Shown here piece by piece: positions 3,401 through 55,693 of a DNA stretch of 64,000 bases; positions within the stretch are counted from its first letter, which is position 1; each line of letters starts with the position of its first letter. Below the pieces are notes generated by a model. It did not search any database, was not told where the DNA came from, and was given only the letters and a program-made list of their open reading frames with translations. The position numbers and the translations under genes are program-made. This stretch comes from Mesotaenium endlicherianum (Eukaryota): NCBI GenBank assembly GCA_009602735.1, contig WELA01002258.1, positions 866,244 to 930,243 on the forward strand, given 5' to 3'.

Positions 3401-4164
3401 ATCTTTTCAGACAATTTTGAACACACTTTACGCAATTCTGCGACAAAACCAGCATCATCATCTCGAGTAGCCGCTCGCTGCTTACCCTCGGTGAGTTGCC
3501 TCATGGCATCTGTTAATTCTTGTGTTACTGTAGCTAAATCTACGCTCTCAACAGGTGCAGCAGGTATCGCTCTTCCTGATGACAAAGCGGACAGTCGGGC
3601 TTTTGCAGCCTCTTTCTGGATTTTTAAATCCGTCGCCTTCTTTTGCTTGTCAAACGCCCATTCCAGGGTAAGGTTCTCATCCTTCCGGAAGTGGCGATAA
3701 AGCGACAAGGCATCCTTGTCCAAGTACTGAACCAAGCTTATAAAAGCGACTGACTAAGTATAAGAAGAATCCTTTCGAATATTCTCATAGAAATCAGCCC
3801 AATAGATCTCATCAAACTCTTTGAAAGTGAGACTATTTACACCGGTTCGTCCACTAAAACACTTTGTAGACAGCTTGAACTTAGGATTTTCATCCTTATC
3901 ATCACCAGTCATTTCAAATGGTGACCAAGACTTACTATCTTTACCCCACACGTTGTGCTCTCTGCCCAAATTGGGTACATAGGCTCGCTCGTTACACGGA
4001 TTCTCACCGTTCGTGGCAGTATGGCGAGACTCGTCTCCCGACGGTTGCTCACTCCACGGGTTATCCGTGCGCTCAGATGTCTCACTTCCTCGTGGACTCT
4101 GGCTTGAATCAGAATCTTCTGCAGGCTCCACAGGGTAATAGAGCCTTCCACTCCTCAACCGCAT
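480..4164 (-). pseudogene. Gag (2x CCHC) - aspartic protease - C5 DNA methyltransferase polyprotein, disrupted
   Basis: ORFs 3754-4257, 2509-3735, 2221-2493 and 700-2115 are all in one frame, separated only by single stop codons where copy 2 has Gln. Likely start MRLRSGR at 4164. Zinc knuckles CWNCGKSRHRKRDC and CSHCSKKGHSKDEC; protease LLDTGA...LLG. A frameshifting deletion of about 150 bp lies at ~775. Confidence 0.85.
560..1380 (-). other. C5 cytosine methyltransferase domain (copy 1)
   Basis: Motif I VLELFAGLGSG, motif IV FAGFPCQPFSQAG, V GFNDPR, VI VFVIEN(G), VIII SHRARLFWTN. In the shifted frame: IX REPTAEEKGRCLGIP and X KIFGNMIG. Confidence 0.9.
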
Positions 4165-11300: not shown

Positions 11301-13546
11301 CTACTAAGGTCCAACAAAAGTTTGAATTCATTCCTTATTTTCGGTAATTAACATTTTCTGGACACATTGTGTTATTTGCATTTTGTCATTTTTTCAATCT
11401 TATCAAGACAACAACGCTGGTGGAGGCACTTTCCTATGAGCCACCATCCTTCCAGTGAATGGAGTGAAGTTACATTCTTCTCTGCTAATTTCTCTCTCAA
11501 TTTCTTTGTCCTCTTAGACGCCTCTTGGGATGCCAATTATTACTCAAAGCTAGGAATACCATAATTACGTGATGCAGAAGCTCTGGCAACCCAAGCCCAT
11601 TAAAAAAATGGCAAACAAAAAGAAGATCCAGATCTTGCCATGCTCCCATCTGATCTCCTCTCAAATCTGCACCATATAACAAGCCCATCATTAGGAGTCG
11701 ATAGCAAAACAAGTCAAATTGCAACGTTTGCAAACTATTGTAGATGCCCACTGCCGAGTCTGTGGGGGTTGCAGCGAAGTAGTTTTGGCTAATGGGGATC
11801 TTAACTGCCGCATTATGATCTTGTGGCTAGTCAAAAGGAAAAGGCACTGCTTGAGCTAGAAAGAACAAACTTCAGAAAATTGTGGGTCTTGGTGTGAGAT
11901 TTGCAGTTAATTGAGTAGCCTTTGGATGTCCAAGTGGGCCAGTCAATCTGCGTGTTAGTACAACCAGTTCTAACGCGGGTTTAGGGTTTAGTCAAGGGGT
12001 CTAATGGGCGCATTAATCGCGAGAACATGAAGAATGGTGCTCCATGCCACTTGCCTAATATTTGTAACATTCATTGCTAGCCACAATGCTTGCTAACCAC
12101 CCCTACAAGACCTATGGTTCCATTTACCGCCGCGCTTCTATGCTGCCTGTGACCGATGCAACGCGGGTTGGCATTTGGTCTGTTCATCTCCTCCTTTGTC
12201 ACAAGTTCCCGAGGGGGCTTGGTTCAGTCCCTCCTCCTAACCATCTCGTCAGCCAAGGACCCTTTTATTGCTCCTTCCCTTTGTTTGTGTTTTTTCCTTA
12301 GTGGTTTCATTGTTTGTGCAGGTCCTCCCTCCCTTTCCTGGTAAAAACAGTCCCTGCTCGCCGACTCGTTAGGTCTACCCCCGCCGTTACTCACCGCCGC
12401 GATAGCTGACGCCTTCCGAGTGGACTTCTTGGAGACAAATAGTGCCCCCACCGAATTTCCTATTGTGGACGGCCGTCTGTCGCCTATTTTGTCGTTCATT
12501 TGTCCTTCCACGGAGATCTATCCCGTCTCCGTTTGTCACATCTACCACAAGGAGTACCTCCCGCCTGGTAGTTTCTCTTTTGTCGTCCCTGACGGCCCTC
12601 TCCTTGCTGTCCGGCATTCAGCTTCTGCCTCGACCCCTTACCTTCAGCTGGACGGGGATTTTCCTAGCTTGATATTTGTACTGCATAGCTTTTAGCTGCC
12701 AAGTAGTGCCCAGTTCAGATTTCCGCATATTTTCACATTTACAGCTTATAAGCTGTGGGTTTTTCCCCCTATAAGGGGAAATTTTACCCAAGCACGTAGG
12801 TTAGTCATTCAATGCCTAGTTTGGGAGTAGTCCCCTCCCTAGGTCACTTCCTTGTTGTGAGAATCTCCATAGCATGCCAAGCTATGGACTCTTGCACGTA
12901 TATTTCATGCCATCTATCCAAGTTCCTCAATCTGTCCTGCTTATGTCATATAGGATATTACCACATCAACAGTAAGGTAGATTCTTTTTTGTTTCTTGGA
13001 TGACAACACCTTCGCAACTTTATACTTTCAGCTGTTGAAGTCGCAATATCACCGCAAAATACCCACGTGCATGAGAAGCAGAAGCAACTTGTACACATGT
13101 CAGGTTGATAATTCATATACATTACATTAAAGCTATGCTCTGCAATACATACTTATGTGGCATAACCTATCGTTGTCAGATGACTACTTGCCCAAGAGAA
13201 CCTTACATGAGCTTCGTGAGCTGAGTCTCTTCAAAAAAGCCACGGCAAGTACAACTCTAACCAAGCACACCACATCGGCTGCAGATTGCAACGTGGCCTT
13301 GTGGTGGTGGCCTGCTCAAGTGTGACTTGGCCTCGAGCAGCAAGGGAAGTTTGTGCCCATTGCGCACATGCAGCTTACTAGAACAACACTGGTTGGATCT
13401 ATGCTCTGGTGTGCAATCCTCATCTAGAAGCGACGACACCAATATAAATAGTACGGAGCGCCAATATTATTGGTCGCACCTCTTACCTGTGGCAGCCAGA
13501 CCTAAATATTAAGGAAGAGGTATCTGGAAGTGGTATATTTTGGAAC

Positions 13547-15464
13547 TTATCGAGGCGTAACTTCAGAAACAAATGGGACACTGATGGCAGAAGTGCCTTC
13601 GGAGCCGAGCATTGGTGCCTCAGGACCCATGCTGCCGCTGGAGGGGTGGAAAGCAAGCCCTGAGGAGGGCAGCCCTGTGGAGCCGCCTGCTCTTCGTATG
13701 AGCGGCTCCGAAGAATCCATATATTGCAGGTGGGCCTCACCGCTCCCTATCTCTTCCAGGCGGGTGGCCACCTGTGCCATGGATGGCCGATCAGCAGCGC
13801 CCAACTTGACGCAGTCGAATGCCAGCTCTATGACGTGTGCAAGCGCCTGCTCCGAGAACTCCCCAATCGTGGGATCGATCACAGAAGTCCAGGCCAAAGT
13901 GGAGAGCTTCCACTTGACCTGCGCCCACATCATTAGATTACGGTGCGCCGTTACAGCCTCCGGCCAGTGCTTCACGGACCAACATATCTGGCAGGAAGCA
14001 ACCCAGGCGGGCGTATACACAAGAAGGTCAGACGCTTACCCAAGCTATCAACGATTTGGTCTCCTCTGGGTTTTCCAGGTCCTTCCAAGTGGGGCGCTTC
14101 CCGGTGCACAGTTCCAACAGCACCACTCCAAAGCTGCGGTGAGCATGGCACACAGGCAGCTAGTCAGTGCAATCGATTTCATGTGATGGCTTTGTAGTGC
14201 CCACAGGCCAAGCGCAATCATACAGATGCTAAAATAATCCACATTCTCAATGACTCCCCTCTACTCTGCTTACTGCAGCTCATGTACTTGGTAAAAAGGA
14301 CCCGTATGAGCGAAAAAGGCCAGTAGGGACACACCTATAAACATCGCTCTTGGGCGTGAGTTGGAAGGTGGAAAAATATTCGGGGTCCATGTAGCCGCGC
14401 GTGCCCGCCAGCTGTGCCGTGCTCAGTTTGTCCACTCCATTGCCCACCCGCTTCAGCAGCCCAAAGTCTGCCACCTTGGCCTGCACCGTGCACGCACAAC
14501 AGCAGCGCCGCAAGGGCCACGACTGAGTACGTTGGCTACCACAAGGTCGTGCACAAGCAAGGGGTGCGGCAGTCAACAGCAGCTAGGTGGTGGGGGTGGG
14601 CATGGGCACTTGGAGCTTGGCATCCAGCAGGATGTTCTCGGCCTTGACGTCGCGGTGGATGATGGCTTCCTTGGCATTGTTGGCAAACGAGTGCAGGTAG
14701 CTCAGCCCGCGCGCCGCCCCCACAGCAATTATTAGCCTCTGCTCAAACGTCAGCGGCTGCCTCCCGCTACCTGGCAGCACACAGATGCACGTGCAACTCG
14801 CTTGCTCAGATCAGCCAGCCAGTCAGTCAGTCAGTCCGCCGGCCAGAGTGCCGGCCCCTCGACTAAGTCCCTTGCTTCCCCCCCTCCAAGAGGACAAAAG
14901 TGGGAGAAAGAGGGGCGGCACCTTGCTTGGGGTGCAGCCAGTCATCCACGGTGGCGTTGGGCATGAACTCGTACACAAAGATCTGCTCGCCCTTGTCGGT
15001 GCAGAAGCCCAGCAGCACCACCACGTTCACGTGGTTCAGCTGCGATATCAGATCCACCTGCAGNCCCTCGCAGTACCTACATGCCGTAAAGTGTGCAGAT
15101 GGGCACGGGCACGGGCACGGCTTTATCCAATCACCCCAGCCCTGCCTGGCTACAACTACTTACTGTCAGGTACGTGTTCTGCAACGCGATCCCAAAAGCA
15201 GGCCCATATTTGCGACACTCGGCGTATGCATTGCCGCGTCACGCACCTCCTCGGCAAAGTCCTTGAAGCCCTGCTGGGTGGCCTTGTTGGCGCGCTTCAC
15301 GGCCCACAACTTGTCATTGGGGCCCTGCCCCTTGTACACCGTGGCAAACCCGCCCGCGCCCATGCTGTTGGCGTCGCTGAAGTTGTCTGTTGCCTTCTCC
15401 AGCTCCGCCAGTGGGATGTACTGCACCCCCCCCGCCTTGAGCTTGCTCAGCAGCTCCTGCCCCT
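13547..15464 (-). other. RLK/Pelle-type Ser/Thr kinase domain and C-tail (six exons)
   Basis: [85 protein letters not shown]. Confidence 0.95.
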
Positions 15465-18400
15465 CTGCACACCACCCGCATCCCACACAATTCCCTCTCG
15501 CCTCAGATACGCCCCTCCTTGCCCCTTCTCACTACCTCGGAGGCCAGGTGGCGGAAGGAGGCCCAGGGTTTGCAGACGCAAGATAGCATGTGTGCACACC
15601 CACCTAGGTCCAGAGGGCCCTGCTGATTGTAGCGCCGGCGGCCCCACACAATGGCCGCCAGCAGCAGCACAGCTGCCAGCACACACGCTCCCACAGCTGT
15701 GCCGGCAATCGCTCCGGTCGAGAAGCCCTTGGACGCCGCTGCAGCACGGCAACAGACAGGGACAAGGCAGTCGCAGTCGACCCTCAGTTCTTGCCACACG
15801 AATACTAATGGAGAGTCGCACTAAACAAGGGCCAATGCACTCCCTGTATGTGAGTGTGTGCGTGCAATTCGTTGAGAAGGGACAAACCTGGGGGCGCTTC
15901 GGGGCCGGGCAGCACATCTTGCAGCTCCAGGGCGTTGAGCTTGGGCTCCTGCAGGCGGCTGCCCGGGCTGGGCATGATGCGCACACGGATAGTGGAGCTG
16001 GACGCTCCCAGGCTCACGCGGAAGTCGCGGAACAGCGTCGCCCGCGGCCCCACCTCCTTGACCACGTCCAGCCCGCTCAGCACCAGCTGCACCCCACCCC
16101 CTCCCGCCCCTGCTCTGTAAGAGGCATGCGGACAGACAGACACAGGGGATCAACTGTGCTGCACGCACGCACACTCACTCATGCAAATATGACCCCCTCC
16201 TCCCAGGTGATTCCCTGTCTCCCTCCAGGAAAAATTCACTTGATTTGTCCCACACACTCACATACACGGTCATTTAACGTGGCAAACCTGTCCCGCTCTC
16301 GCCCCCCCTCTGACACAGACCCACAAACATACACAGAGAGAGAGAGTGAAGGGTAGAGGCGGCCTCTACTCACGTCACGGCAGCACCCTCTGCCATGCTG
16401 TGCTGTGCTGGGGTCGTTGAAGGAAGACAGACAGCAAGCAGCACCCACTCACCTGCTCATTGATGTAGATGTCGAGCACGCGCCCGCCCACGTCCTCCAC
16501 TGTCAGCTCCGCAAAGTGCAGGCGGACGACAAACTTATGTGATGATTTGACGGCAATGGAAGTGCTGAGGCCGTCGGGCCCCAGGTGCTCCTCTCGTACC
16601 AGCCGCTCGCTCTGGTACACGGCCAGCGGCAGAAACTGCGGCGCTTCCCCCGTGCCGCTGATGGGCACCGGAACGGTGTTGGTCGTGGTGTTGGGGTTGG
16701 TGTACTGCGAAGGGTCGTCTGACTGCCATGATCGCCCGCCTGCCAGCAGCACACACTTGGCCGCACAGGCTCCCCTTGTCAGCTGCATGCACCTTCTCCC
16801 AGCTTAGCACGGAGGCATGAAGTCAGCGTGTCCGGCACAAATTTTTGTCTGTCTGCATGTGCATGTGAGTGAAACAGGGATAGGAGAGACACAAGCCTTA
16901 CTTGAATCCACATACGGCATGCCCCCAATGTTCTTCCTGTTGGGGCCAAAGAGCTGGAGGATGTCTTTGGTGGTGGTGGTTTGATTAAACAGCCCCTCCG
17001 GCTGCGTCACAATCTGCAGCACGCACACACCAACACGTCTTTTGCTTAGAGGGGAAGCACAGAGCAGGAAGAAAAAAGGCCGCCCGCCCGCCCGCCNNNN
17101 NNNNNNNNNNNNNNNNNNNNNNNNNNNNNNNNNNNNNNNNNNNNNNNNNNNNNNNNNNNNNNNNNNNNNNNNNNNNNNNNNNNNNNNNNNNNNNNNNNNN
17201 NNNNNNNNNNNNNNNNNNNNNNNNNNNNNNNNNNNNNNNNNNNNNNNNNNNNNNNNNNNNNNNNNNNNNNNNNNNNNNNNNNNNNNNNNNNNNNNNNNNN
17301 NNNNNNNNNNNNNNNNNNNNNNNNNNNCCCTCCTCCCAGGTGATTCCCTGTCTCCCTCCAGGAAAAATTCACTTGATTTGTCCCACACACTCACATACAC
17401 GGTCATTTAACGTGGCAAACCTGTCCCGCTCTCGCCCCCCCTCTGACACAGACCCACAAACATACACAGAGAGAGAGAGTGAAGGGTAGAGGCGGCCTCT
17501 ACTCACGTCACGGCAGCACCCTCTGCCATGCTGTGCTGTGCTGGGGTCGTTGAAGGAAGGCAGACAGCAAGCAGCACCCACTCACCTGCTCATTGATGTA
17601 GATGTCGAGCACGCGCCCGCCCACGTCCTCCACTGTCAGCTCCGCAAAGTGCAGGCGGACGACAAACTTATGTGATGATTTGACGGCAATGGAAGTGCTG
17701 AGGCCGTCGGGCCCCAGGTGCTCCTCCCGCACCAGCCGCTCGCTCTGGTACACGGCCAGCGGCAGAAACTGCGGCGCTTCCCCCGTGCCGCTGATGGGCA
17801 CCGGAACGGTGTTGGTCGTGGTGTTGGGGTTGGTGTACTGCGAAGGGTCGTCTGACTGCCATGATCGCCCGCCTGCCAGCAGCACACACTTGGCCGCACA
17901 GGCTCCCCTTGTCAGCTGCATGCACCTTCTCCCAGCTTAGCACGGAGGCATGAAGTCAGCGTGTCCGGCACAAATTTTTGTCTGTCTGCATGTGCATGTG
18001 AGTGAAACAGGGATAGGAGAGACACAAGCCTTACTTGAATCCACATACGGCATGCCCCCAATGTTCTTCCTGTTGGGGCCAAAGAGCTGGAGGATGTCTT
18101 TGGTGGTGGTGGTTTGATTAAACAGCCCCTCCGGCTGCGTCACAATCTGCAGCACGCACACACCAACACGTCTTTTGCTTAGAGGGGAAGCACAGAGCAG
18201 GAAGAAAAAAGGCCGCCCGCCCGCCCGCCCGCCCGCCCGCCGCCCGTTGCCCGTCCACATTCTGAGTATCGAATGACAGAGTGCAAGCCATGAGCTCCTC
18301 CGTATCCTCCTCCTCCTCCTCCTGCTGCTGCTCATCTGCTGGGAGGGAGATAAGGTGCCTACCTCAATGGCAGAGACCATAGGATTCCCAATGGAGCGAG

Positions 18401-21400
18401 AGAAGGTGATGGTGAGGTTGGGGCCGGGGATAGCAAGCGAGAACTCGTCATAGTACGGAACCCCGGCCTTGGGCGGATTCAGTTGGCTCATTACCTGCAG
18501 ACCCACGCGCTCTCAGTCTCTCAGAAGACGTCCGCAGGTCGCGACAGCGGGATGACAGCTGCCTCAGGGTCCTACCCTCCTCCGTCAGGGCCAGGGATGG
18601 AGAGAGGAGGGTGCTGCTTACAAGGAAGCCGTTGAGCAGGATGCTGTAGGAGCGCAGCAGAGGGGACGAGAACTCAAACTCGCCATAGTACACCCGCACC
18701 TGCAGCCACCCGCAGCCAAAACTGTGAGGGCGGGATGCCGCTTGCTCTTACCTGCTCTCGGATAACCGCAAATGCCCTAGCTCAGTGTGAGAGAGCATAC
18801 CAGGTACAGCCCGGGAGCAGACTCAATGGGAATGTTGTAGCTGTTGTTGGCCCCCCCTGGCCAGTATCTGTAGGATGCGTACAGCTCGGCGTTGTCTACC
18901 CACTGCGACTGCTGTCTCTGGATGTTCTTCAGCGAGGCACTCATGGCCACACCGCTGCTGAAGTAGTCATCGGCAGCCCAGAGGTTGCCGGCAGGGTCCG
19001 TGTACTCCTGGCCCCCACAGTTGATCCGGATGGCGCCTGCCCCCCCCTCAGTCCCACAAGTTGCATACACACATCATGTCAGGGTGGGCCTGCTGCAGCC
19101 GCTTGGGGCCCTGACACAATCGATGATCACCACTACCAGCAGCAGCAGCAGCACGTCTTGCGGTGCCGGGGAGGAGGGGGCGCGGCACCTTCGAAGCTGA
19201 GAGGGGGGGGCACGAAGATGGAGGTGAGCAGTTCCACGCCGCAGAGCAGCGCCTCCTGCACGCGGCTGCCGTTGCTGGGGCGCACCTCATACGTCACCCC
19301 GTCGCTGGTGTCCGCCTGCACCTTAAAGTCCACATACGTGGCGCTCATAGGCCCCACCTCCTTCACCAGGTCCAAGCCACTGCGCACCACCTGCGAGACG
19401 AGAAGACCACTATACAACAGGCAAGTCAGCTCCCCTGAGGTTGCACGTGCCGTTGCTAGTGGTACTTGCCAACAAGAGACACGTGCACGGCGCATGCACA
19501 ACACACATTAACAGCACTGCAAATGGTGGCGAATGTGCGCGCTGGCTCTCTCTCGGAGCCGCACTTCTTCCGAAGCACCAGACAGGCAGCCTCTGCTGGC
19601 AGCCCCACCCACCTGGCCGTTGAGGAGGATGTCCATGACGCGGTCGCCCGCGCGCGAGTACTGCAGCTCCGCAAAGTGCAGCCGCACCAGGAAGAAGACG
19701 AAGCTGCTGCTGCCCAAAAACCTCGCTGTCAGCACCTTGCTCAGGCTGGTGGGCACCACTATCCCGCCCTTGGTGGCGCCCTTGCTGATGCGCGCGCTCT
19801 GGTACACGCTCTGCTCGTAGTCGCCAGCCTCCGCACGCACCACCACCGGCCTGGTGGCCCACAGCGTGGTGGTGTGATTGTTGAGGTCGTTCACGCGGTT
19901 GTCCAGGAGCCAGGTGCGGCCCTGCGAGTCCATGAGGCTGTTGCCGCCGATGTTGTAGCGCTCCACTACGCTTGTGAAGGGCACGGTGTACGTCTCACGG
20001 TACATGCCCGCCGGTGCCGCCGCCACCTGACGCACGCGCACAGTGGGCATGCCAGAGGGTGGGCAACGTCCTATTGGTAGCAGACAATGCTCTGCACTTG
20101 GATTCGATGGGTCTCATCTTCCACCCTTTGGGGGGGGGGAAGGGGGGGGGGAGNCACAGGAGCACAGAACTCAAACACGGACGAATTGAAGTGCGTGAAG
20201 CTGAAGTTGCCCGCCACCTGCCACCCACCAAGCACCCCTGTGAGGTCACTACCATGCTCGGCCTGACTGTGCGATCGTGCACCGTCCCCCAACCCAATTG
20301 GTACTTATATTGACGCAGAACATGTGCTAAAGAACAGCAGCAATTACTTCACTACCATATACATGGCAAGTGTAAACTAGAGTGCAAAGGCGAGGGGGAG
20401 ACGGGGGGGGGTGGACAAGCAGCTCTGACCACGCGGCCATCCAGGGCAATGGAGAAGGCGCGTGTGGTGTTGCCCAAGCTGAGCGGGTCCACCTCCGCAA
20501 AGTACAGGCGCACCTGCGCAGGGACGCACCCACAGCGCACGGGGAAGACAGTGAGCAAGTGCGCGTTACCCCCCGCACAGCACACGCATAACACGAGCAG
20601 AGAGGAGGCAACCACACTGGATTTCTATGCGCCTCCGCCTTTGCCTCGGCCACTGCCTGAGCAGCATGCAGCAGAAGCAGCAGCAGGGGCAGCAGCAGCA
20701 GCAGCAGCAGGAAGAGGAAAAGGGGGCAAGTGGGTAGAGGATGTGTGTGTGAGAGAGAGTGTCAAACCCAGTAGAGGCCGGGCTGGCTGAGGGGGATGAT
20801 GTAAGAGCCGCCCAGGACGTCCTGAGGCCACGTGCGCTGCGACGCCAGCAGGTGCGCGTGGAACCCCCCGGTACTGTACATGGTCGCCATCACCGACTGC
20901 TTGGCCGGCACGGCCTGCCCCCCCTTGTAGAAGCGGTCGGGCAGCCACTGGCGCCCGTACGAGTCGATGGTGACGCCGCCTCCGCAGTTGATGCGCACCA
21001 CCGCGGCCTCATCTGCGCAGCCGCCGCCCGTTCAATCAGTCACCCAAACTCATTGGTGACGCGTCCGGACACAGGCAGGGGAGGGCAGGACAGGGGGGGA
21101 GAGGGACAGAGGGAGAGAGGGAGGGGAGGTGGGAAGGAAAGAGGAAAGGAGGGAGGGGGAGCAGATAATAATGATGAGCTCACCTGAGCGTGTCGGCTGC
21201 GGCTGCGAGAGTTGGTCGTGGCGCAGCATCTCCACGGCGCTGAGCATGGGCTGCTGCACCTTGGAGGCGGTGCTGGCGCGGATCTGCACCAGCAGCAGGC
21301 CCGTGCCGTCCCCCTGCACGTTGAAGTCCTTGTACAGCGACGCATTGGCGCCCGCTTCTACCATCACGTCCAGCTTCTCGTATGCCACCTGTCCACGCCC

Positions 21401-24400
21401 TTGATACCGCTCACACATGTGAGGACGGATGGTGCCGGCACCAACTTTGACGCTGCGAGGGGGGGCTGGCCGTAACCCTGCTTGGAAGGAGGAGGCCGGC
21501 AGCCACAAAACTTCGAGACTATGGCTGTCGGGCCGCTACTGTCTAGACGAGGGGAGAGGAGAGGAGAGAGCAAAGGGGTACATACAAAGCCGTTGATGAG
21601 GATGTCCATGACGCGGACACCCGCAGCCGCATACTCCACCTCGCAGAAGTGCAGCCGCAGCAGATAGAACGTCAGTTTGGAAGGCAGCCGCAGCGGCATC
21701 GAAATCGTGGGCGTGCCGCTGCTGCTGCTGCTGCTCTGATTGAGCGCCAAGGGCAGGGCTCTCCGCCCGGAGCGNCAGGGCCCTCCGCCCGGAGCGCAGC
21801 AGCGCCGCAGGCACGTAGCTCGGGCTGACGTCCGCGCCTCCGATCACAACATCGTTGCTGACGCTGTAGAGGGCGGTGGAGGCGGGGGGCTCGTAGAAGT
21901 TGGGGTCGTCGCCAAAGAAACGGCGGCCCAGGGAGTCCACCACGTCCTTGCCGCCCACATTCCAGCGCCCATATGCCCACAGCTCGGTGGGTGGCGCCAC
22001 GATTGTGGAGAAGTAGCTTGCAGCCGGCACTGGCACCACCTGCCCACCACCACCATCCATCCGGTAGGCAAAGGCAGGCAGATTCAGCAGTAGCAGCAGC
22101 AGCAGTCACAGACAGCTCAACCTCACTCACCATCGGCCTGCATGCATGGGAGATGAGGAACTTCATGCTCCGGGCAGGCAGGCTCCCAGAAAGGCAGGGA
22201 GGGAGCGACTGACCTCAATGGCGTTGACGTAGGGGGTGGAGTCAACGGAGGCAAAGCTGAGGGTCAGATTGGGGCCTGGGACGGCCACCACGTACTCAAA
22301 GTGCTCGTGGCTTGCAAACGTGGATGGGGTGTAGGACACTCCCACCTGGCACACAGTCGAGCCAAGCCCCACCCGCACCAGCGCATTACACTCTGTACTT
22401 GCATGCACCTACGCGACAGCTAGGCGCACGTGTGTTATCTGTGCCCATGAGCTACTAGCACTGATAGTACTAGTGGTGCAAGGCTGCCTCTTGGGGATGC
22501 TGGTGTGTACAGTTGAGTACCTGAGACAGAGAGAGAGGGATGGGTGAGGAGGAGGAGGGGACGAAGGAGCTTACCGGACTGTCGTTGATGACAAAGGCAA
22601 GGTGGCGCAAGGACGTGTTTGCATACTTGAGCTCCGCGAAGTGCACGCGTATCTGCCCAGATGACACGCACTCCTCCCTATCGTCGTCAAAGTGTGCTGC
22701 AGACGGCCAAAAATGGGCGCAGGACAGCGGTCACGCAGACAGACTGAGACAGACAGACATACTTCATGGCCCTACCCAGCCAAACCTGCACAAGTGTGCA
22801 GGCACGTGGGCTGAGCGGCCAGCAAGCACAGGGGAAGGGGAAGTGGGGAGGGCAATCCTGCTGCCAAGCCCACTTGCAGCAGCAGCAGTCGCGTGCCATC
22901 TCCTACCCTTCCCTACCAAGTACGTGCCCTTGACGGCGGGGATGACGTAGTTGCCGACGCCGCCGCCACGTGGCCACTCGCGGTAGGATGCCACGACTGG
23001 GGCGTCCTGGCTGGTAGAAACCAGGAGGGCAGTGGCGTTGTCTGTGGCAGCGACCGCCGTGCCCCCCTCAAAATAGGCATCCTCTGACCACTGCACGTTT
23101 CTGGCGTTCTTGTACGCCCCACCGCCGCAGTTTATGTGCAGAGCACCTGCCGCAGCCACACATCATCATCACCATCCAGAGGCTTCAGCACATGCTCCTA
23201 ACTCTGAAGTAAGCACTCCCCCGGAGCCCCGCAGAGAGCCATCCATCCCTTCTCAAATCGATGGCAAGACGTTCACGCCCCCTGGCAATGTCTTCCTCCT
23301 CCTCTCACTCCCTCCCTTCTTAGTCGCTAAGTGGTCAGCGCGAGCCTCAGCCCAAGAGCGGAGGGCACAGGGCACCGGGCACAGGGTGCGGACCTGGGGG
23401 AGAAGGGGGGGCGGGCAGCATCTCAAAGAGGCCAAAAATTTCAAAGGCGCTGAGGATGGGCTCCACCACGCGGCCACGCGTGTTGGCTACCACCTCCAGC
23501 ACCAGGTAGCCCAGCAGGTTTTCAATCTGCACCACAAAGTCGCGGTGCATGCCCGCATTGGGCCCCACCTGGCGCACGATGTCCAGCCCCTCCAGCACCA
23601 GCTGCACGCCTCCCCCCCCCCGGCCCCCCCTTCCCCCCCTTTTCCCCTTGAGGATGTGCCCACTCACTCACTTGGTCACTGGGTCAACAGCAGCAGGTGC
23701 ACGCGGAGGGGGGGAACATCTCCTGCTGCCGCTCACCTGGTTGTTGATGCGGATATCCACCAGGCGGTCACCGGGCAAGCTCAACTCTATCTCCGCAAAG
23801 TGCAGCCTCACAAGCACCCAAGCTGTTGAAATCAGGGATATGGAGTACGTCAGTCTTGCCGGCGGGTCTGTCGGCTGGCCGCCTGGTGCCTTGCGGAAGC
23901 TTTGGTAGATGCCAGTCGGCAGCCTGTCGAGGGTGGCGTTGAGGTTGCTGATGTTGGCCTGCGTGGTGAACACCACGGAGCGCTGCTGCGAGTACCAGAG
24001 GTCGTAGTCGTCGCGGTACCACACGCGCCCCTGGGAATCTCCAATGCCTGCGCCGCCCACGTTGACGCGGCGGAACGAGAAGAGCACCGAGGGCGTCGTC
24101 ACTGCCTCCCTGTACTGCCCATCCGGCGCCGGGTACACCTGCAGGCTCCCTCTCCTCCCGTCACCTTCTTGTGAGCTGTCGCGCGCACCGCTGCTGCCGC
24201 CGGAGTGATCGGTGAGAGTTGCTCCTGGTGAGCATGGACAGCCCTGATTGATTTCATCTGCTGGAGAGGTCGCACGCGAAAGAAGGAGCTCTCCAAGGAT
24301 ATGCATCACTAAGGAAGGGAGAGGGAGTGGAAGCGCCTGCGGACCTCTATGGCGTTGACGTAGGGCGCGCCAGAGGGGCCGCGGTCAAAGGCTATGGTGA

Positions 24401-27400
24401 GGTTGGGCGTGGTGACGGGCACATGCACCTCCTTGGTGATCGCAAGTACCGGGTACGCGTTGTTGTAATCTATCAGCACCTGCCTCGTCATCGCCATCAG
24501 CGTTTATCAGAGAGCCGGCTGACCTTGGGAGAGGAGCAGCAGCAGCATCAGAACTTGGGGACTTCAAAATAGGGAGCGAGGGAGAGCGGGGAGGGATTAC
24601 CAGGCAGGCTGAGCTCGGGAGAGGAGCAGCAGCAGAACTTGGGGACTTCAGAAAAGGGAGTGAGAGAGAACGGAACTAAATCTCCAGGCAGACAAGTAGG
24701 AAGGCAGGCAGGCAGGCAGGCACACAGGAAAAGAATCAACAGTAGTGGAGAAGAGTGGACTAGCAGCAGTTGGGAGGTTGGCCAGGGAAAGGGGCGGAGC
24801 TTACAGCGGTGTCCTGGAACTGGACCGTGAAGGCGCGATAATTATACTCCAGCTCCGCAAACTGCAGCCGTACCTGCAAGCCGGCAGCTCGGCAGCCAGG
24901 GTCTCATGTCCTGCCACTTTCTTGCTCTCGCTCTCGCTCTTTCTAGTAACAACAGATGACGTCGGGGAACATGTCTGGGTGGACCCGCACGCGATTAGTG
25001 GCGAGATGCAGCACCAGCACCATCAACAGGAGCACAAGAGCACGCACCAGGTACAGGCCGGGCCTGGGCACGGGGATCCGGTAGTAGTTGAGTGTCTCCC
25101 CGGAGAACTCGCGATACGACGCCGCCACCTGCAGCGCCTGGTCATTGTCCTGCTCTCCTGCCAACAAGGCAAACTTGGCCAGGCTGGGGGGCACAGCCAC
25201 ACCCCCCGAGAAGTATTGATCCGCCACGTACGGGAACCCCGCGGCCGAGACCATGGCCTCTCCACCGCAGTTGATGCGCAGAGTGCCTGCAGGGGTAGAC
25301 AGGCAATGCAACGCGGGGGTTGGCACTCGGAAAGAACGCTTTCCCTCGACTTACATACAGGAGAGAAAGCAAGTTCCTCGCGGAAAGATCAGGCGCTTCG
25401 AAGACCACCGTGCAGCACGGGGACAGCACCACCACCTCCTCACTGACTCCTGAAGCATGGCCCATGCCCTTGCCTACGTATGACTGACGTGAGGACAGGA
25501 CTAAGCATCTCCTCCCTCACATGCAAAGGGCTAATTAGGATCGCTACTCCCCAGGCTAGCACGGGTGGGGGGCAGCTCTGAGGCTCAACCTCCTTGGTCT
25601 GCATGCAAGTCACTTCTCTCGATCTTACCGTCGGGAAAGGGATCAAAGACTTGGAACATCGAGATGTGGCGGAACACTTCCAGCGCGCTCAGCAGGGGCT
25701 CCTGCACAGGGCTGGCGGGAGCATTGATGACGGCGATGGTGATAATGCTGCTGCCGATCGCGGCAGGCACGGCTTCCATGTTGAAGTCCAAGAACATGGC
25801 CTTGTTGGGGCCCGCCAGCCGCACCACGTCCAGGCCCGCGTACACCAGCTGCACGCCCAGCCCAGAAGGAGCATGAACGCTCGCACGCACTCACACCCAC
25901 ACACACACGGGGGCCCCCTCCCTGTCCTCTGACAGACAGCAGAGTAGCAGCAGAGGGGGCTCCTGATGCCAAGCTGCATACGAGTATATACCTCCCCCTC
26001 AGCCCGGAAGCAGAGACGCAACAGGCGGCCTGTTCCATAAAGCAGCAACCGGCCCCCCCGGCTACGAGAACAATGGGCATGATGGGCGCCGGCGCCGGTT
26101 CAGTACACACACACACGCAGACGCACATATACACACGCAAAATCGTGTGCAGAGAGGGCCAGTGAATGAGTGACAGGCGGACTGACCTCGTCGTTGACGT
26201 AGACGTTCATGACACGCTGGCCGGCGGTGAGGCCCTGGACCTCCGCGAAGTGCAGGCGCGCCGTGTGGTAGGAGGCGTCTAGCACGGGCACCACGATGTA
26301 AAGCCCCACACCCGTCAGGTTCTGCGTCGCGATGGTGGTGGCCGTCTGGAGCACGCGCAGCGGCAGGAAGTCGGGCGAGCTGCCCGTGCCCGCCACCTGG
26401 ACGGCGGGGCCCACGCGCGTGCTGCTGGTGCGGTTGTTGACGTACATGAGCGGCACGTCGGGCTCCCACGTGCGCCCCTCCGAGTCCAGAAAGGGCGCGG
26501 GGTCGCCGCCCATGTCCAGGCGCGTGACGGTGCGCATCATCATGGGCGTGTTCACGTTGTTGCGGTACAGCCCCGGGTAGTGGCGCGCCACCTGTCCAGT
26601 CGGCGGCACAGCAGAGGCGCAGATGGTGACTTGCGTGACATTTAGGCTAGCAGAGGTCAAAGCAGAGCAGAGCAAATGACCCGGCAGAGGTTGGGGTCTG
26701 GCTGCGCTGCTCCCATGCCTGCCTGCGTGGCAGCTCCTGCCAGCAGCATGGCTACGTTCAGTTTGGTCGTCGCATCATCGTCATCATCATCTTGACCTTC
26801 GTCCGCAGCTGCAGCAGCAACGCTCAAGGTGCATGCGTGCAGGTGCCAGCCCACGCTACACAGAGCGCAAAGCACACGCCAACGGAGCAATGAAGCGTGC
26901 AAACAAGCGCGCTCACCTCGATGGCAGAAATGTGCATGGCTGCTCTGATGGCGATGAGGGACACCACGGCCGCGCTGCCGTACACGGGCACCGAGAACTC
27001 TAGAAAAAATGGCACCGCCGGGTTCGCCACAGTGTACGCCATGTACGCCTGCAGAAGCAGCCTCAGGAGCAGTGGCCACTGCTTCAGCACTCGGCCGCAG
27101 GAGGAGGAGGAGGAAGAGCAGGAGTAGCTGCACCCAACTAGATGCAAGACAGCGCGCCCGGTGGCTACATTTTCACTTTTATTCTAACAATTGCAGCTTG
27201 CTCTCCTGCTTCCTGCTGCCCGCACCACTTCTTTTTTTGGGGGGACGGGGGGGGGGAGAGGGGAAGGGGGGCACGGCTACCGTGAGTCCGTTAATCATGA
27301 TAGTGAACGCGCGGTCTGAGGTGTTGGCATACGTCAGCTCCATGAAGTGCAAGCGCACCTGCTTCCCCCCCTTCCCCCAACCACCATCACCAGCACGTGC

Positions 27401-28098
27401 ATGCATCCAGCCGCGCGCTCTTGATGAGGCACGCAGCCACGATGACAGGAGAATCCTGCTCATGCCGTGCACGCAGTACTCGCAAGCATGCATCATCCTT
27501 GAATAGACTTCCAGGATGGCGCTCATGGTGGCAAGTCCAAGAGCTCTCAAGTGCCACCGTGACCCCCACGCCACTCTCCCAACGATGACACCTGGCTACA
27601 AGAACCTCCAGCTTCTCCTTCCTGCAGTCTAGATGTGGCTGGACAGCACTGGACCTGAGCAGAATTCATGAGCGGCAGCGAAGTTTTCTGGGACGTTACG
27701 CTGCCCAAAAGGGATGACCCAGCGGGATGACCCAGCTGGCAGCAGCAGGCCCCCCCCCTTTCCTTTTCCCACGCCCTGCTGCCTTTGAAGCATGCCCTTC
27801 AATCGCCGGCAACTCCTGGCTCAACCCTCACAGGGTACCATCCCGCGGTCAGGGGGAGACGCGCGTACCCAGAAGTAGCCAGGGGCAGCCACCGAGATGT
27901 TGTAGGAGCCCACATAGTCCGTGGGGGCCCACTCGCGGGTGGTGACATACAGCAGGTTGTCCTGCAGCAGCAGCTGGGCTCCCAACGCCGTGCTGTTGGC
28001 TGGCAGGCCGCCGACATAGCTGCTGTCGGCCGCCCACGTGCGGTTAAAGTGGTCGACGAAGGCGGGACCGCCGCAGTTGATGCGGACCACTTCGCCAT
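13547..28098 (-). CDS. Multi-exon receptor-like kinase with ten malectin domains (five tandem pairs), TM helix and RD kinase; 5' end/signal exon unresolved
   Basis: Phase-consistent GT-AG exons at the 3' end: 15888-16086, 15604-15738 (TM), 15247-15464, 14922-15057, 14610-14770, 14335-14480, 14040-14133 and 13547-13918. Upstream exons carry repeated malectin motifs RINCGG/RxNx[17 protein letters not shown]..vG and P.v.AIE. Confidence 0.9.
15604..15738 (-). other. Transmembrane exon
   Basis: [26 protein letters not shown] followed by the GRRR stop-transfer motif. Confidence 0.9.
15888..19037 (-). other. Malectin pair 5 (domains 9+10), membrane-proximal
   Basis: IRINCGG...VRVYYGEF...MVSAIE, then RKNIGG...VRLHFAEL...LDVVKEVG...LNALEL. 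Confidence 0.8.
16196..18229. repeat. ~900-bp direct duplication on either side of an N gap (probable assembly overlap)
   Basis: About 16196-17096 repeats about 17328-18229 (offset 1133) with only a few SNPs, and both copies abut the N run 17097-17327. Confidence 0.85.
19189..21012 (-). other. Malectin pair 4 (domains 7+8)
   Basis: VRINCGG...VRLYFAEV (third exon obscured by an N at 20154), then RYNIGG...VRLHFAEL...LDLVKEVG...LCGVEL. Confidence 0.75.
21185..23147 (-). other. Malectin pair 3 (domains 5+6)
   Basis: LHINCGG...IRVHFAEL...YVNAIE, then RWNVGG...LRLHFCEV...LDVMVEAG...LSAVEM. Confidence 0.8.
23393..25287 (-). other. Malectin pair 2 (domains 3+4)
   Basis: LRINCGG...VRLQFAEL...YVNAIE, then RRVNVGG...VRLHFAEI...LDIVRQVG...LSAFEI. 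Confidence 0.8.
25590..28098 (-). other. Malectin pair 1 (domains 1+2)
   Basis: VRINCGG...VRLHFMEL...ISAIE, then RLDMGG...ARLHFAEV...LDVVRLAG...LSALEV. Confidence 0.8.
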
Positions 28099-31000
28099 CT
28101 GGACGTCACTCCGAATGCAAAACGTTCGAACTGAGTGAAATGAGCGAACAGAGTACTCGGCAGCATAATATCTTTCTGGCAGCTGCTTTCAACCCCTGCC
28201 CAGTCAACGCTGCTCGACCAATCTCCAGAAATGTATATAAGTCTCCCTTCTACCTTTCCTTGCTTCCCCGTGATGACAAGCTTGACGACTGTGTGCATCA
28301 GCAAACGCTTCCTGAAAAGCAGGCAGGCTGCTGCTCGTCGCTGCAAGCTGCTGTGGCATGTGAGGACCCAGCACTCAATTGACATGCAGCAGAGGACGAG
28401 GAGGGGGAGGGGAGCATCTGTGCATGGGTTGACAGTGCACGCCACACGCAGCTTCCATTGCTGCCATAACCCGCCATACACAGCCTTGCGGTATATTTGA
28501 AACTCCTCATCAACTTCATCAATATACAGAGTTGCATCCAATCAGGCATTACCAAGCCTGATGAAAATGTCAGACTGATTCTAACCTATAGCACAGCCGC
28601 ATAGCGACTATCTGCCCCTGCTCCCACACCAATACATAAGTTCACTACACGTTTCTTGTTCAACTTGTCGGGTACAAGTCCCTCCTGCGCTCCGCTAAGA
28701 ACCGAAGCCACATGTTCTCCAGTCAACTCATTTCATCATTCAACTTGTTCAGTTTCTGTCGTGGCCCCTCTACTTGTTGAAAGTATGTCGTCTATGCCCT
28801 TACCCTCTTTGACTACTCGCGTTTATGTCAGGGCGCATTCTATAATTATAACTACTCCACAAGCCAGCATAGCAGCTAGTGTAGACACACGTGCTCGTTT
28901 GAAATTCGGACTCATGTTCGGGTTATTCAAAATGCGCACGCTCAGTCACATAGATGGCAGGTACAGAAGGGTGGAGTCGCTGAAGGCACTTCAAGTAAAG
29001 AGCCAGTTCTGCTTCAACTTCAAACGCCCCTGCAGTTATGCAGCCAGTCGGGTACCGTAATACAGGCTTGCATATCTTGGGGAGGCAAACGTGCTTAAGA
29101 AGGAAAGCTTGCGAGAAGCTGGAATTAAATTCATTTCTGAGGCAATTCACCTTGTTTCGCTATAAGAAAGTGCTTTTTTATTTCCCGTAGCCTGTGCTCG
29201 ACTGTTCAATGCGAATTACGAGAGCCTTGATATCACTCACATGCATTCTCGGCACCCACGCGTTTACCTGAACTCTCGCCATTAACGGCTACAAGCAGGA
29301 CGATGAAAAGCCAGTATATGCATGCGAAGCGTCCGCGCTTCATGGGCCTCGTGTTGGCAGATTACTTCATGTAAATTTCTTGTCAAGGCATCTATAGTAG
29401 AGGGGGCACGACCCTACGAGACAAGAAGTTGAATCATAAGCTGACGAAGGGCAAATTTCTAAATTTCACAATTAAGGAATGGAGCAGACAAGACCTGATG
29501 TCAATCACCACTTGCAGGCGCGTGAAGGCCCGAGCTCTTGACGACGTAGCCGACCTCGGAACTTGTACGCGTGAGGCGACAACAGAGAGAAGTGGGAGTA
29601 ACCGGGTCTGACTGGGACAGGTAATCGGGTCGGACCCTTGAAATAGTCGCGAAAACGCCAAAATTTGCAATTCGCTTGGACTCCCGGCGCGGCCACCACC
29701 TCCGGAACAAACTTTTCTCGATTCGACCGGGAGACATTTTACACGCAAATGCATCCGAGAGGCATCGTACCAAAAAGGACGGAAAAATGCATGAAGCCCT
29801 GCCTGGCGTAATCATGCAAATATGAGAGCACATTCGACTGACGTACTCGAGCATAAGCGTGTATGCAACAAACGAAACTCAACGACACGATTTGTACGCC
29901 TCTGCAAATCTGTACCTTGGAATCACTCAAAAGCTGCTGACAATTTCGAGACCAAGCACGCGAGATCACGGAATTTGAGAAGCAAATGACAAGACGACAA
30001 GGTCCAGAAATATAGAATCGAGGTGACGACAAGCCAGGCGCTTGACTACCAGTTCGTCTTGACGTAGGGTATTGTCACACATATGTCACACATTGCCACA
30101 AGAATGAGGGCGGCAACCTCAGTCATGAGTGCGACCGCGACGTGGACAAGGACCGCTGACAATTGTCACCGTAACCTCGTCTTGCCGTTAGACGCAACGT
30201 ATCTAGTTCGAAACACAGCTGCTCGGGTTGGGCAACAGCCTAAATACCGTCATTTTCCTTTAAAGTGACTTACATAATTTTGTTTGTCTTAGCGATGTTG
30301 CGACTGCTATCCACTTGACGGTGCCCACACGCAGCGCAAGTCACGGCCACCCAGGTACGGGAAGTCAGCATTGACTCACCGACCAGAGGACCGAGTCAGC
30401 GCTCATGTTGAAGTCGTTGTCACTGTCAAAGTGGTCACGACACGTCACACCCACACCCAAGACGGGATGAGGATGTGGACCGAGTGGTCAGCTGAAAGGC
30501 TAGGGGCATGGAACCAGCAATGAGCCAGCCTTGCGAGTGCCAAGAAAGGTACTGATCAATCGGCTATTCAAGCCAAGTACAACGGGGATGTTGCAAAGGG
30601 CGTTGTGTGCCGCCTCGGATAGGCCCTCAGCTGACTGGTCACGGCCTGAGCGTTCATCCTAAACGCTGCGAGCCAGCCACATAGGCGTGATTGTCAGTTG
30701 GAAGGCTAAGTGGTCACGCGCAACAGTTCCAAATGCATGCATGCATGCCGAATGACAACTTCTAAGCTGTGTGAGAGCTTATGGGTAAGGACGGCATGCA
30801 AGCCAAGCGCTGTGACTAAGCGCTGGTATTCTCGAAAGAGGATAGTGTGTGGTGCTTGTGAAAGGCACGAGTCCTGCCTGAAGCTGCCTCATCCTTGCTC
30901 GCATTGTTGTCAAAGGAAGCTGAAGAAGCAGAAGGTGTGCAAAGAAGAAGGAATTCCCAAGGCCATAGAAGGGCCGAGGTGCCACGCTTCTGCCAACGCT

Positions 31001-31645: not shown

Positions 31646-34600
31646 ATGCGGTTGAGGAGAGGAAGACTCTACCACTTTGTGGAGCCTGCAGAAGGTTCTG
31701 ATTCTAGCCAGAGTCCACGAGAAAGTGAGACGTCTGAGCATACTGACAACCGGTGGAGTGAGCAACCGTCGAGTGACGAGTCTCGTCATAACTCCGCAAG
31801 CGGTGAGAACCCAGATAATACACGAGCCTTTGTACCTGATTTGGGCAGAGAGCAAGACGTGTGGGGAAGAGTCAGTGAGTCTTGTTCACCGTTCGAAATG
31901 GCCGGTGATGATCGGGATGAAAATCCTGAGTTCAAGCTGTCTGCAAAGTGTTTTAGCGGACGAACCAGCGGAAATGGTCTCACTTTCGAAGAGGTTGATA
32001 AGATCTATTGGGCAAAACTCTTTGAGAAGATTGGGAAGGATTCTTCTTATACGCAATTTGTCGCATTTATAGGCTTGGTTCAATACTTGGACAAGGATGC
32101 CCTGCTGTTATATCGCCAATTCCGGAAGGATGAGGATCTCACCCAGGAATGGGCGTTTGGAGAACAGAAAAGGGCTAGGGATTTGAAAATTTCGGAAAGA
32201 GGCTGCGAAAGCCCGAATGTCCGCTTTATCTTCAGGAAGAACAGTGACAACTGCACCTGTTGAGAGCATAGACTTAGCTGCACTAACACAAGAATTAACA
32301 GAGGCCATGAGGTAACTCACTGAGGGCCAGCGAAAGGCTGCCACTCAAGATGATGATGCCGGCTCTGTCGCAAAATTGCGAAAGGTGTGTGCAAACTGTC
32401 TGAAAAGATTGCTAAAGCTCAGGAACGAGTAACACGCAGAGCTACACCTCTCAATGGTCAGCAAAGCGATAGCGCCACGACAGAGGCAAGCCCTGCGCAA
32501 GCCTTAGCTAGCTGTCGTAAGGATATGGAGGCTGGGGATGACCAGCTAGACTCCAAGCATTGCCTGCATCGTTTCTTCAAGTTGCTTGAAGCACAATTTC
32601 CAGAGGATTGCAGTCTTAAGGTGCACCGATATGTGCATTTTGTTCGTCAGAAGAACGAGACAGTCCTGGAGGTCAAATCCAGATTGGTAGACCTCGCTAA
32701 AAAGGCAAAAATTTACGAGCCCAGAATGGTGGCTGACAAGTTTCGGTTGTGCTTGGGCAAGGAAACAGATCGTGAAGTCAGGCCACATCTGTCCGCAAAG
32801 CACGGAATTGACTGGGACATCGACGAGGCGGCTGGAATAGCACGTAATATTGAAGAAGGTAAAGTGTGGTATAGAGAGGCTTCCAGGACGCTTATGGCTC
32901 CTGAGAGGAGAGAGGAATTCTCTTTGCCTAAGGCCAACAGCTCTAATTTTCAGTTTAAGAATAAGAGCGGGTCTTTCAATAAGTTTGCTAAGCACGCCAA
33001 CACTGCTGAAACAGCAGAGAGTTGTTGGAATTGCGGGAAATCAGAAGAGAGATTGCCCGTACCCAGATGCTAAGCAACTATCTGCTAGCAAAGCGCAGAT
33101 ATGCGCACATTGCAGTAAGAAGGGACACTCGGAAGATGAGTGCTGGTCTAAGAACCCAAATCTAAAGCCGCCCTGGGCAAATGCTGCCACGAAAGAGGCA
33201 GACAAAGAGAAAAAGAAAAAAAAGGGTGGCTCTGGTAACCGCAAGGGTAAGCAGAAGTATGAAGCTATGAGTGCAGAAATGGCTGAGTTGAAAGCGCAGT
33301 TTGCGAAACTAAATGCACCCAATGTCTACTATGATGCAGATATTGCAGAAAAGACCGTCTGCAAAGGCGAGAAGCGGCTGCCTGGAAAGACTGTGGATGC
33401 AACGGCTGCCGAGCAAGCAGATCACAATCGTCTAGTGCCAAGGAATGCTGGGAAGCTTCCTCAGACTTTCCGGATCACTCTGGATGAGAACGAGATCTCG
33501 CAGCTACGACAAACCAGGCCCGGGTCGCGCACGACATTTAGCTTTTCGCTGGAGAAACTGAAGGCCCTGGTGGAACACCGGATCCAGCATGCTCCTTTGC
33601 TTTCTCTCGCTGATTTGCATATCACTTACCCATTCATGGTTGTAGAGGCCGGACATCAGCTAATATAGCTGAGGAAGGTGCAAATAGCGCCTCATTGCCT
33701 ACCAATTTTAGCACCGTGAGAGTGCAAAATAAGAATGGTGCATTGATCTTCAACAACTGGGCGGCTCCCAACATTCTGTTGGATACGGGCGCACAGCCAG
33801 TCATTTTGGGAAAACGAGCTGTGAAAGCTTTAGGTTTGACAACAAGGGATCTGAAAGAGAGTCCTTTTCAGTTGAGAACTGCCTCAGGACAAGTCTCAAA
33901 GTCTTGTGGGATTTCCCGCAAGCTTGTGAAAATCATAGTAAATCCAGGGAAACCTGAAGAGGTGTCACTATACATGGAGTGCACAGTGACGGAAGCTGGG
34001 AACTATAATATTCTCTTGGGAACAGAAGCACTGATTCCCTTGGGTATGGTCATTGATCTGCGGAAACAGAAAGTGACTTACCAGTCAACAGATAGGCAGC
34101 CGGCAGGAGAAATTCCTGTGAAAATGGTTTGCATAGGAGAAGCAAACTACGGACTGCTAGACTGCTACGTTAATGACAGGTACCCAGAAGCCAGTGACAA
34201 CCTCATGAAGCAAGAAGAGGAATTCTATACAAGCATCAACATGCCAATACCCTTGGTATGGCAACCCCGGATCATGAAGCAGTTGGAAACTGTGAGTAAT
34301 AGGGACCACGGCCCGCAAGAGCTGCTGCCAATACCCTACCCAGTTACTTCCTCTGCAAATCTGACGCCTAGAGTGGAGCTGCTGCCGCAAGGCATTTTCA
34401 GGATGGAAGATCTTTTCCGCAAAAGGGGAGTGGTGGTGTCGGAATTATTCGCTGGACTTGGCTCTGGGACCATAGCATTGATCCAGCGAGGAATACAGGT
34501 GGCCAAAGTCCTGTATGTGGACAACGATGACCACGCTTTCCGAGCATTCCAAGAGGTCATGAATCAGATGCGGCAAATGCATCATTTTAAAGGATTGGCG

Positions 34601-50764: not shown

Positions 50765-51031
50765 CTGTCATTTCAGTTGACACGGGAAGGTGACAGGCGG
50801 TCCTGTCTCCATTTAAGTTGGAGGGGAAAATATATGACAGTTAGTGAGCGAGAGCGATAAAAACACACTCATACGTTTATGTGTAGCGCATCGCAACTAC
50901 GTCAACTTTTAGCAATCATCCTGTAAGGTAAACAGCAGCGAAGCCACTATACTAAATACTAACATACTTCCTGCAATCCCTATGACAAAGGTCCATATCC
51001 TACTAACTTGTGCCCTGGTTACATGTGCAGG

Positions 51032-55656: not shown

Positions 55657-55693
55657 GTGGTATCGGAGCTAGGCACTTTGGTAGCACAAGAAG

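Follow-up and report, generated by a model that had tools for sequence, protein, structure and literature searches.

A spliced receptor kinase gene with five predicted FERONIA-type malectin-like cassettes in Mesotaenium endlicherianum

Introduction

The ligand of the FERONIA-type malectin-like cleft is an open question. The solved ANX1, ANX2 and FER cassettes are described in PMC6038381 as lacking the animal malectin sugar site and leaving the tested oligosaccharides unbound, and in other assays FER binds pectin according to PMC8287233 and PMC12034098. A gene of Mesotaenium endlicherianum, a single-celled alga from a sister lineage of land plants that is reported to be RALF-less, offers five naturally diverged cassettes of this kind and at least three paralogues, so that cleft ligands could be compared cassette by cassette. 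The locus raises the question of whether the five cassettes belong to one receptor kinase and, if so, whether they would see one ligand or several.

Gene model and exon structure

The 64-kb window (the whole stretch of DNA that was analysed) contains a receptor-kinase gene model, read from the sequence, with 34 exons on the minus strand from 29343 to 13547. The predicted product consists of a signal peptide, five malectin-like A/B cassettes of approximately 350 residues each, a single transmembrane (TM) helix and an RD kinase, in that order. Its open reading frame comprises 2,195 residues (~2,200 aa) and one terminal stop, two assembly breaks being marked X. GT..AG borders were found in 32 of the 33 modelled introns, and the remaining intron begins at an assembly N. 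The sequence-only reading had ended the gene at 28098 and missed the signal-peptide exon (29343-29268), which lies 1.2 kb farther upstream. The parts of the gene are listed below.

29268..29343, minus strand: exon 1, with the start codon and the signal peptide; leader hydrophobic, phase-1 GT donor that keeps the frame of 28098; P0002 has the same leader
26917..28098, minus strand: cassette 1 domain A; exons 28098-27869, 27358-27281, 27048-26917; RNA joints of 510 and 325 nt
25629..26591, minus strand: cassette 1 domain B; exons 26591-26187, 25848-25629; PF12819, E 1e-8; RNA joint of 338 nt
24345..25286, minus strand: cassette 2 domain A; exons 25286-25048, 24873-24805, 24479-24345; joint to domain B of 206 nt
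23394..24138, minus strand: cassette 2 domain B; exons 24138-23737, 23601-23394; PF12819, E 6e-7; joints of 135 and 247 nt (247 is the cassette 2-3 join)
22214..23146, minus strand: cassette 3 domain A; exons 23146-22917, 22652-22575, 22345-22214; joint of 264 nt
21184..22039, minus strand: cassette 3 domain B; exons 22039-21586 (N at 21775), 21388-21184; joints of 197 and 171 nt (171 is the cassette 3-4 join)
20155..21012, minus strand: cassette 4 domain A; exons 21012-20768, 20513-20430, 20217-20155 (shortened by the N at 20154); joint of 254 nt
19189..20026, minus strand: cassette 4 domain B; exons 20026-19613, 19390-19189; PF11721/PF12819; joints of 222 and 152 nt (152 is the cassette 4-5 join)
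18363..19036, minus strand: cassette 5 domain A; exons 19036-18801, 18699-18622, 18494-18363; PF11721, E 1.5e-7; joints of 101 and 216 nt
15888..18146, minus strand: cassette 5 domain B; exons 18146-18035, 17872-17586, 16086-15888; joints of 162 and 366 nt; 135 reads from 17586 to 16086
15604..15738, minus strand: transmembrane exon; hydropathy peak; RNA joints of 149 and 139 nt
13547..15464, minus strand: RD kinase and C-terminal tail; six exons, 15464-15247, 15057-14922, 14770-14610, 14480-14335, 14133-14040, 13918-13547; motifs, and RNA joints for all five introns
16195..17327, no strand assigned: second copy of 17328-18229 plus the 231-N gap; likely an assembly artefact, since mRNA and P0003 have domain 10 once

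Ten malectin-fold domains alternating as A and B are present in the spliced model, as had been proposed. The odd domains start with (R/H)INCGG and use three exons each, the even ones start with R-x-(D/N)-(M/V/I)-GG and use two, and domain 10 has one extra intron and hence three exons, which is the exon rule noticed earlier. The previously noted recurrence of intron positions holds as well: intron phases repeat as 1,0,0,0,0 in each cassette and the cassettes join in phase 1. Identities among the domains are 28-40% (A-A), 29-40% (B-B) and 16-26% (A-B). Taken together, the repeated intron positions and phases and the higher A-A and B-B than A-B identity indicate that the whole cassette was the unit of duplication. 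The linkers do contain proline, although the stretches that had been called Pro-rich are short (roughly 8-12 residues). The TM helix (approximately residues 1783-1808, by hydropathy peak) and the kinase, in which all catalytic motifs including RD are present, are intact, as first read. In a Pfam scan with PF11721 and PF12819, which the sequence-only reading had proposed, each of the ten domains had exons matching a malectin or malectin-like family; many of these matches fall below the curated cut-off because the exons are short.

Transcript evidence

Among the joints listed, at least 23 of the 33 introns are exact RNA joints as modelled (14 on the upstream side and nine on the kinase side), and four further introns are backed by loose ends or paralogue-type joints. 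The introns outside the joints listed are signal peptide-1a, 1b-1c, the cassette 1-2 join, 3b-3c, 5b-5c and 5c-6a. Over the upstream stretch (17328-29600), reads of run X24 cover 30 of 30 bins, 14 of the 15 joints listed match modelled intron lengths, and the joins of cassettes 2-3, 3-4 and 4-5 are seen with 71-92 reads each, all at a likeness of 94% that takes in paralogue reads (2746 of 4859 reads are at least 99% alike). At a likeness of 98%, nine of the 11 joints listed for 13200-17096 equal nine modelled introns, leading from domain 10 through the TM exon to the last kinase exon; all five kinase introns were seen as RNA joints at this likeness in two runs, and the kinase-side joints are repeated in spliced contigs of X11, which come from another study. 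These joins support a single spliced receptor-kinase gene at the locus; being short-read evidence, they form a chain of joins rather than one 7-kb molecule.

Runs X21, X22 and X23, all from one study, yielded 86, 4 and 100 reads, mostly partial. Read depth across 13200-29600 is high in X24 and near zero in X21-X23, a contrast which suggests condition- or strain-dependent expression.

Assembly defects at the locus

Positions 16195-17096 repeat 17328-18229 (902 nt, 99.7%, three differences) on either side of a 231-N gap; the repeat spans the first two exons of domain 10, and its extra copy ends in a GCCC repeat. In addition, a single N at 21775, accompanied by a 21-nt overlap copy, lies inside a domain-6 exon, and a single N at 20154 cuts approximately 23 codons off the third exon of domain 7. 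The two single Ns are assembly defects, and the 902-nt repeat is likely one too; the paralogues are open through all three sites. The RNA settles two of the three, as 135 reads go from 17586 straight to the exon at 16086 and, at domain 7, 50 reads carry an exon tail, absent from the window, joined to 20026. An eleventh malectin domain encoded by 16195-17096 was considered and ruled out by the former reads and by the single domain 10 in P0003. Both synonymous variants at 16594/16597 were found in RNA, and the extra copy may therefore stem from a near-identical paralogue.

Paralogues and age of the expansion

The public protein P0004 (jgi Mesen1 ME000129S00365, Mesotaenium endlicherianum) equals the window translation exactly in four pieces. 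Two adjacent models, P0002 (signal peptide to domain 7) and P0003 (domain 8 to kinase), are 86-87% identical to the window product, and P0001 (85% identical) holds domains 1-10 within one model, with five PF12819 stretches. The domain order is common to the window gene and these two 85-87% paralogues, and all the public models are fragments. Judged by these alignments, there are at least three copies of the five-cassette gene, each annotated in pieces.

One further fragment, P0221 (ME000489S07944), comprises a signal peptide and a cassette-1 orthologue (45% identity, grouping 100/99). Since it groups with cassette 1, the cassettes must have diverged before that gene split off, and the expansion is old, as the sequence-only reading had gathered from the divergence of the copies. 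The P0221 model stops at the same exon boundary, and it may therefore represent the beginning of a further, more distantly related gene with several cassettes. A single clade uniting the five cassettes, P0221 and P0253 (see below) did not receive firm support in the cassette tree (59/83). An old internal duplication of a FERONIA-type module is the likely origin of the five.

Fold and family placement of the cassettes

The cassette profile aligned with ANX1, ANX2 and FER from position 5 to position 346 of its 351 (E 1e-27 to 6e-24), and the top 10 Foldseek matches of a cassette-5 model were all ANX1, ANX2 or FER proteins. This model is middling (pLDDT 73, pTM 0.50; TM-score ~0.6 and rmsd ~9 A to ANX/FER), and the A-B packing was accordingly not reproduced. 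In the cassette tree, Mesotaenium and Spirogloea cassettes join CrRLK1L as opposed to LRR-I types (100/99), and a union with LRR-I is rejected (p-AU 0.003). At the residue level, the Cys and Gly of NCGG and a Glu that corresponds in the alignment to Glu150 of ANX1, at the interface of A and B, are present in all five window cassettes, and an aromatic equivalent to ANX1 Phe244 in four, the other cleft positions being variable; the MalB Cys occurs in cassette 3 only. Each A/B pair would be expected to adopt the ANX1/FER fold, leaving a cleft between the two domains.

The ectodomain is built of tandem MalA/MalB (PF12819), as in CrRLK1L, but numbers five cassettes instead of one. No LRR family was detected in the paralogue scans and no LRR motif in the window model; on the presence of a signal peptide, a single TM and no LRR, the window receptor fits CrRLK1L. 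The proposal of one receptor with five FERONIA-type cassettes is supported by splice joins, the cassette profile, structural matches and trees.

Kinase placement

A kinase phylogeny against CrRLK1L, LRR-I and LRR-VIII, which had been suggested at the outset, gave a sister group and left all three unions standing. In the best tree, the kinase of P0253 is the sister of the window kinase (100/99), which itself branches outside the CrRLK1L clade (98/96). Forcing it into CrRLK1L cost 23 log units (p-AU 0.058, not rejected; land-plant references without CpRLK1), forcing it together with LRR-I gave a p-AU of 0.12 and was not favoured, and union with LRR-VIII-1-like kinases reached 0.43, yet this grouping does not appear in the best tree. 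The trees used 46, then 35, of 111 extracted domains under LG+G4 without a mixture and without an outgroup. Pairwise scores were best with LRR-VIII-1 (243 bits vs 222 for CrRLK1L), a label that is based on a sequence motif. The homology search was crowded by two-kinase-domain proteins and its references were land-plant matches only, and an atlas search with the kinase returned generic streptophyte kinases only. Neither the window model nor the paralogue scans show the LRR ectodomain typical of LRR-VIII-1 and LRR-VIII-2, which in LRR-VIII-2 is accompanied by one malectin domain. Thus, on these comparisons, the kinase is not clearly CrRLK1L, whereas the receptor outside it appears CrRLK1L-like.

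Search for equivalent receptors

A HMMER search of 1.84 billion representatives (one per 50% cluster; algal gene models are fragmented) returned 432 proteins at E ≤1e-30, and the analysis covered the top 150 of them, down to a score of 164 bits. Besides the window gene's own family, none of these 150 combines several cassettes with one kinase. Three bear a kinase, namely two single-cassette algal receptors and one fused model, while two proteins (P0325 from Closterium, and P0283) have two cassettes, LRRs and a TM but no kinase, and the majority of the others are long multi-malectin proteins without a kinase. P0280 from Senna, with two cassettes, two TMs and two kinases, was rejected as a precedent because it represents two THESEUS-like receptors fused in one model. 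The look for algal relatives therefore brought up paralogues and single-cassette receptors but, within the best 150 of 432, no multi-cassette kinase outside the family. A weak, word-indexed search with a wider cassette alignment yielded no new eukaryotic relative (only 5 matches, 640-2000 aa). No described receptor of such architecture was found in the literature searched either, in keeping with the original impression of novelty; RLKdb or newer Mesotaenium annotations could hold a full-length model. The receptor is a real novel variant among malectin-like RLKs, so far from one species.

The nearest known system is CrRLK1L (FERONIA, ANXUR1/2, THESEUS1 and Closterium CpRLK1), which likewise has a signal peptide, MalA/MalB aligned end to end, no LRR, one TM and an RLK/Pelle RD kinase. 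It differs in having one cassette rather than five, perhaps in its kinase clade, outside which the window kinase falls in the best tree, and in its cleft positions, which are conserved there and appear largely variable in the window family. Land-plant CrRLK1L genes are mostly intron-poor, whereas the window gene has 33 introns. Among the best 150 of 432, the closest cassettes outside the family are those of Mesotaenium ME000076S09680 (P0253) and Spirogloea SM000061S19287 (P0239), at 208 and 225 bits, with one cassette each; the P0239 kinase groups with CrRLK1L and LRR-I (94/94), unlike the P0253 and window kinases. LRR-I RLKs of the IOS1 and SYMRK type also join a malectin-like cassette to a kinase, whereas the window receptor is devoid of LRRs. 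P0283 and Closterium P0325 (GJP71485.1) share a tandem cassette duplication but are LRR-I-type, with LRRs and a TM and without a kinase. Their first cassettes cluster together, as do their second ones (P0325/P0356 and P0283), and by this clustering they represent a cassette duplication that arose separately in algae. Multi-malectin proteins from metagenomes (e.g., P0206, 11 malectin domains with fn3), probably bacterial by source and domains, have single-type domains instead of A/B cassettes and no kinase.

RLK censuses based on fragmented annotation overlook the five-cassette architecture. In supplementary file 5 of a 350-species survey (PMC10834447), Mesotaenium endlicherianum is credited with 4 malectin-only proteins, 3 malectin RLPs and 1 malectin RLK, and the gene ids of the window family are not among the rows listed from that supplement.

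Cleft variation and proposed function

According to PMC6038381, ANX1 is without the animal malectin sugar site and its cleft is lined by Leu72, Leu142, Tyr146, Tyr214, Tyr237, Pro241, Tyr242 and Phe244. At these eight positions, 16 of 40 cassette-by-position cells differ between the paralogues vs 278 of 1724 (16%) overall (p 0.0014, or p 0.018 when the comparison is limited to columns that the cassettes do not conserve), in a partly post hoc test, the variable patch having been noticed before the cleft residues, on an alignment of ~20% identity, with no surface-exposure control and no dN/dS. Two of the eight positions never vary between paralogues. The differences also recur, with 19 columns varying in at least three cassettes vs 10.6 expected (p 0.004). 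Relaxed constraint on loops may be an alternative source of the cleft variation. On the alignments, divergent cassettes with a variable presumed cleft are easier to reconcile with several specificities than with a single site present five times, and the cleft and recurrence statistics favour, without proving, five differing and diversifying pockets on one kinase.

We thus tentatively read the gene, at a chance a little under even, as encoding one spliced single-pass RD receptor kinase whose five old-duplicated FERONIA-type cassettes serve as a multi-pocket surface sensor. Each A/B pair would fold around a cleft as in ANX1/FER, and the five cleft linings, which appear to differ among cassettes and again between paralogues, would let each cassette bind a different ligand, be it fragments of wall or mucilage polysaccharides or microbial or secreted proteins. 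Binding to any cassette could then lead to receptor clustering or co-receptor recruitment and to activation of the single kinase. RALF peptides are reported as absent from charophytes in a review (PMC13516882), which makes them unlikely ligands; the ligand is probably something else. A bolder proposal, which we regard as doubtful, is that this is a hidden algal family in which FERONIA-type cassettes on a kinase of another clade were multiplied to five diversifying pockets, giving a multi-specific recognition receptor that predates RALF and shows the first ligand of the FERONIA cleft.

Repeated domains commonly increase avidity, and the five cassettes might each weakly bind de-esterified pectin or a similar chain, jointly tethering the kinase to the wall and reporting its integrity as proposed for FER/THE1. 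Such a role would suit an ectodomain that groups with CrRLK1L cassettes (100/99), and fragmented polygalacturonate binds the FER, ANXUR and BUPS ectodomains and single MalA or MalB domains according to PMC12034098. However, the cassettes are just ~30-40% alike, paralogues differ most at their presumed cleft, and no binding of the tested oligosaccharides, PGA included, to ANX1 or HERK1 was detected in PMC6038381, so that we consider avidity sensing unlikely.

A receptor for mating or cell recognition, acting in conjugation like Closterium CpRLK1 and reading partner or strain identity with its variable pockets, seems improbable to us. CpRLK1 is expressed in mating and required for gamete release (PMC5002434 and PMC7389452), and the sharp difference in read depth between RNA runs and the cleft variation between paralogues would agree with such a role, but the window kinase falls outside CrRLK1L in the best tree, whose comparison set was without CpRLK1. 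It is quite improbable, too, that the outermost cassette alone binds a ligand and the inner four are spacers lifting it off the membrane: cassette 1 does have the divergent orthologue in P0221 (45%, 100/99) and the lowest paralogue variation (12%), but the inner four retain the Glu of the interface and vary recurrently at positions of the cleft, as pure spacers would not need to. Separate genes, in which secreted malectin proteins would be encoded upstream of a kinase gene shorter than the one modelled, are suggested by the split public models (P0002 stopping after domain 7, P0003 beginning at domain 8, P0004 a fragment) and by the absence of the cassette 1-2 join from the joints listed, but are very improbable in view of the one signal peptide and one stop, the phase-compatible GT..AG joins, the three cassette joins with 71-92 reads apiece, the 50 reads spanning the P0002/P0003 split point and the presence of domains 1-10 in the single model P0001. 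The reading of one receptor with five differing pockets is the one we prefer.

Genomic neighbourhood

The receptor gene stands alone among transposons in the window. A 581-aa ORF without a Pfam match (50963-52708, plus strand) and long ORFs of 429 and 1230 aa (55685-60561, minus strand) were found, along with a DDE transposase (PF13843; 53176-54465, plus strand) and gag and pol ORFs of a Ty3/gypsy element of chromovirus type (45453-50764, plus strand), which carry RT, RNase H, integrase and chromo domains. DNA methyltransferase-carrying retrotransposons are known from Klebsormidium and Symbiodinium, and retroelement-like ORFs at 700-3753 (minus strand) and 33614-35830 (plus strand) of the window encode fusions of an aspartyl protease with a C5 cytosine DNA methylase (PF00145, E ~5e-15), one of them adjoining a zinc-knuckle ORF.
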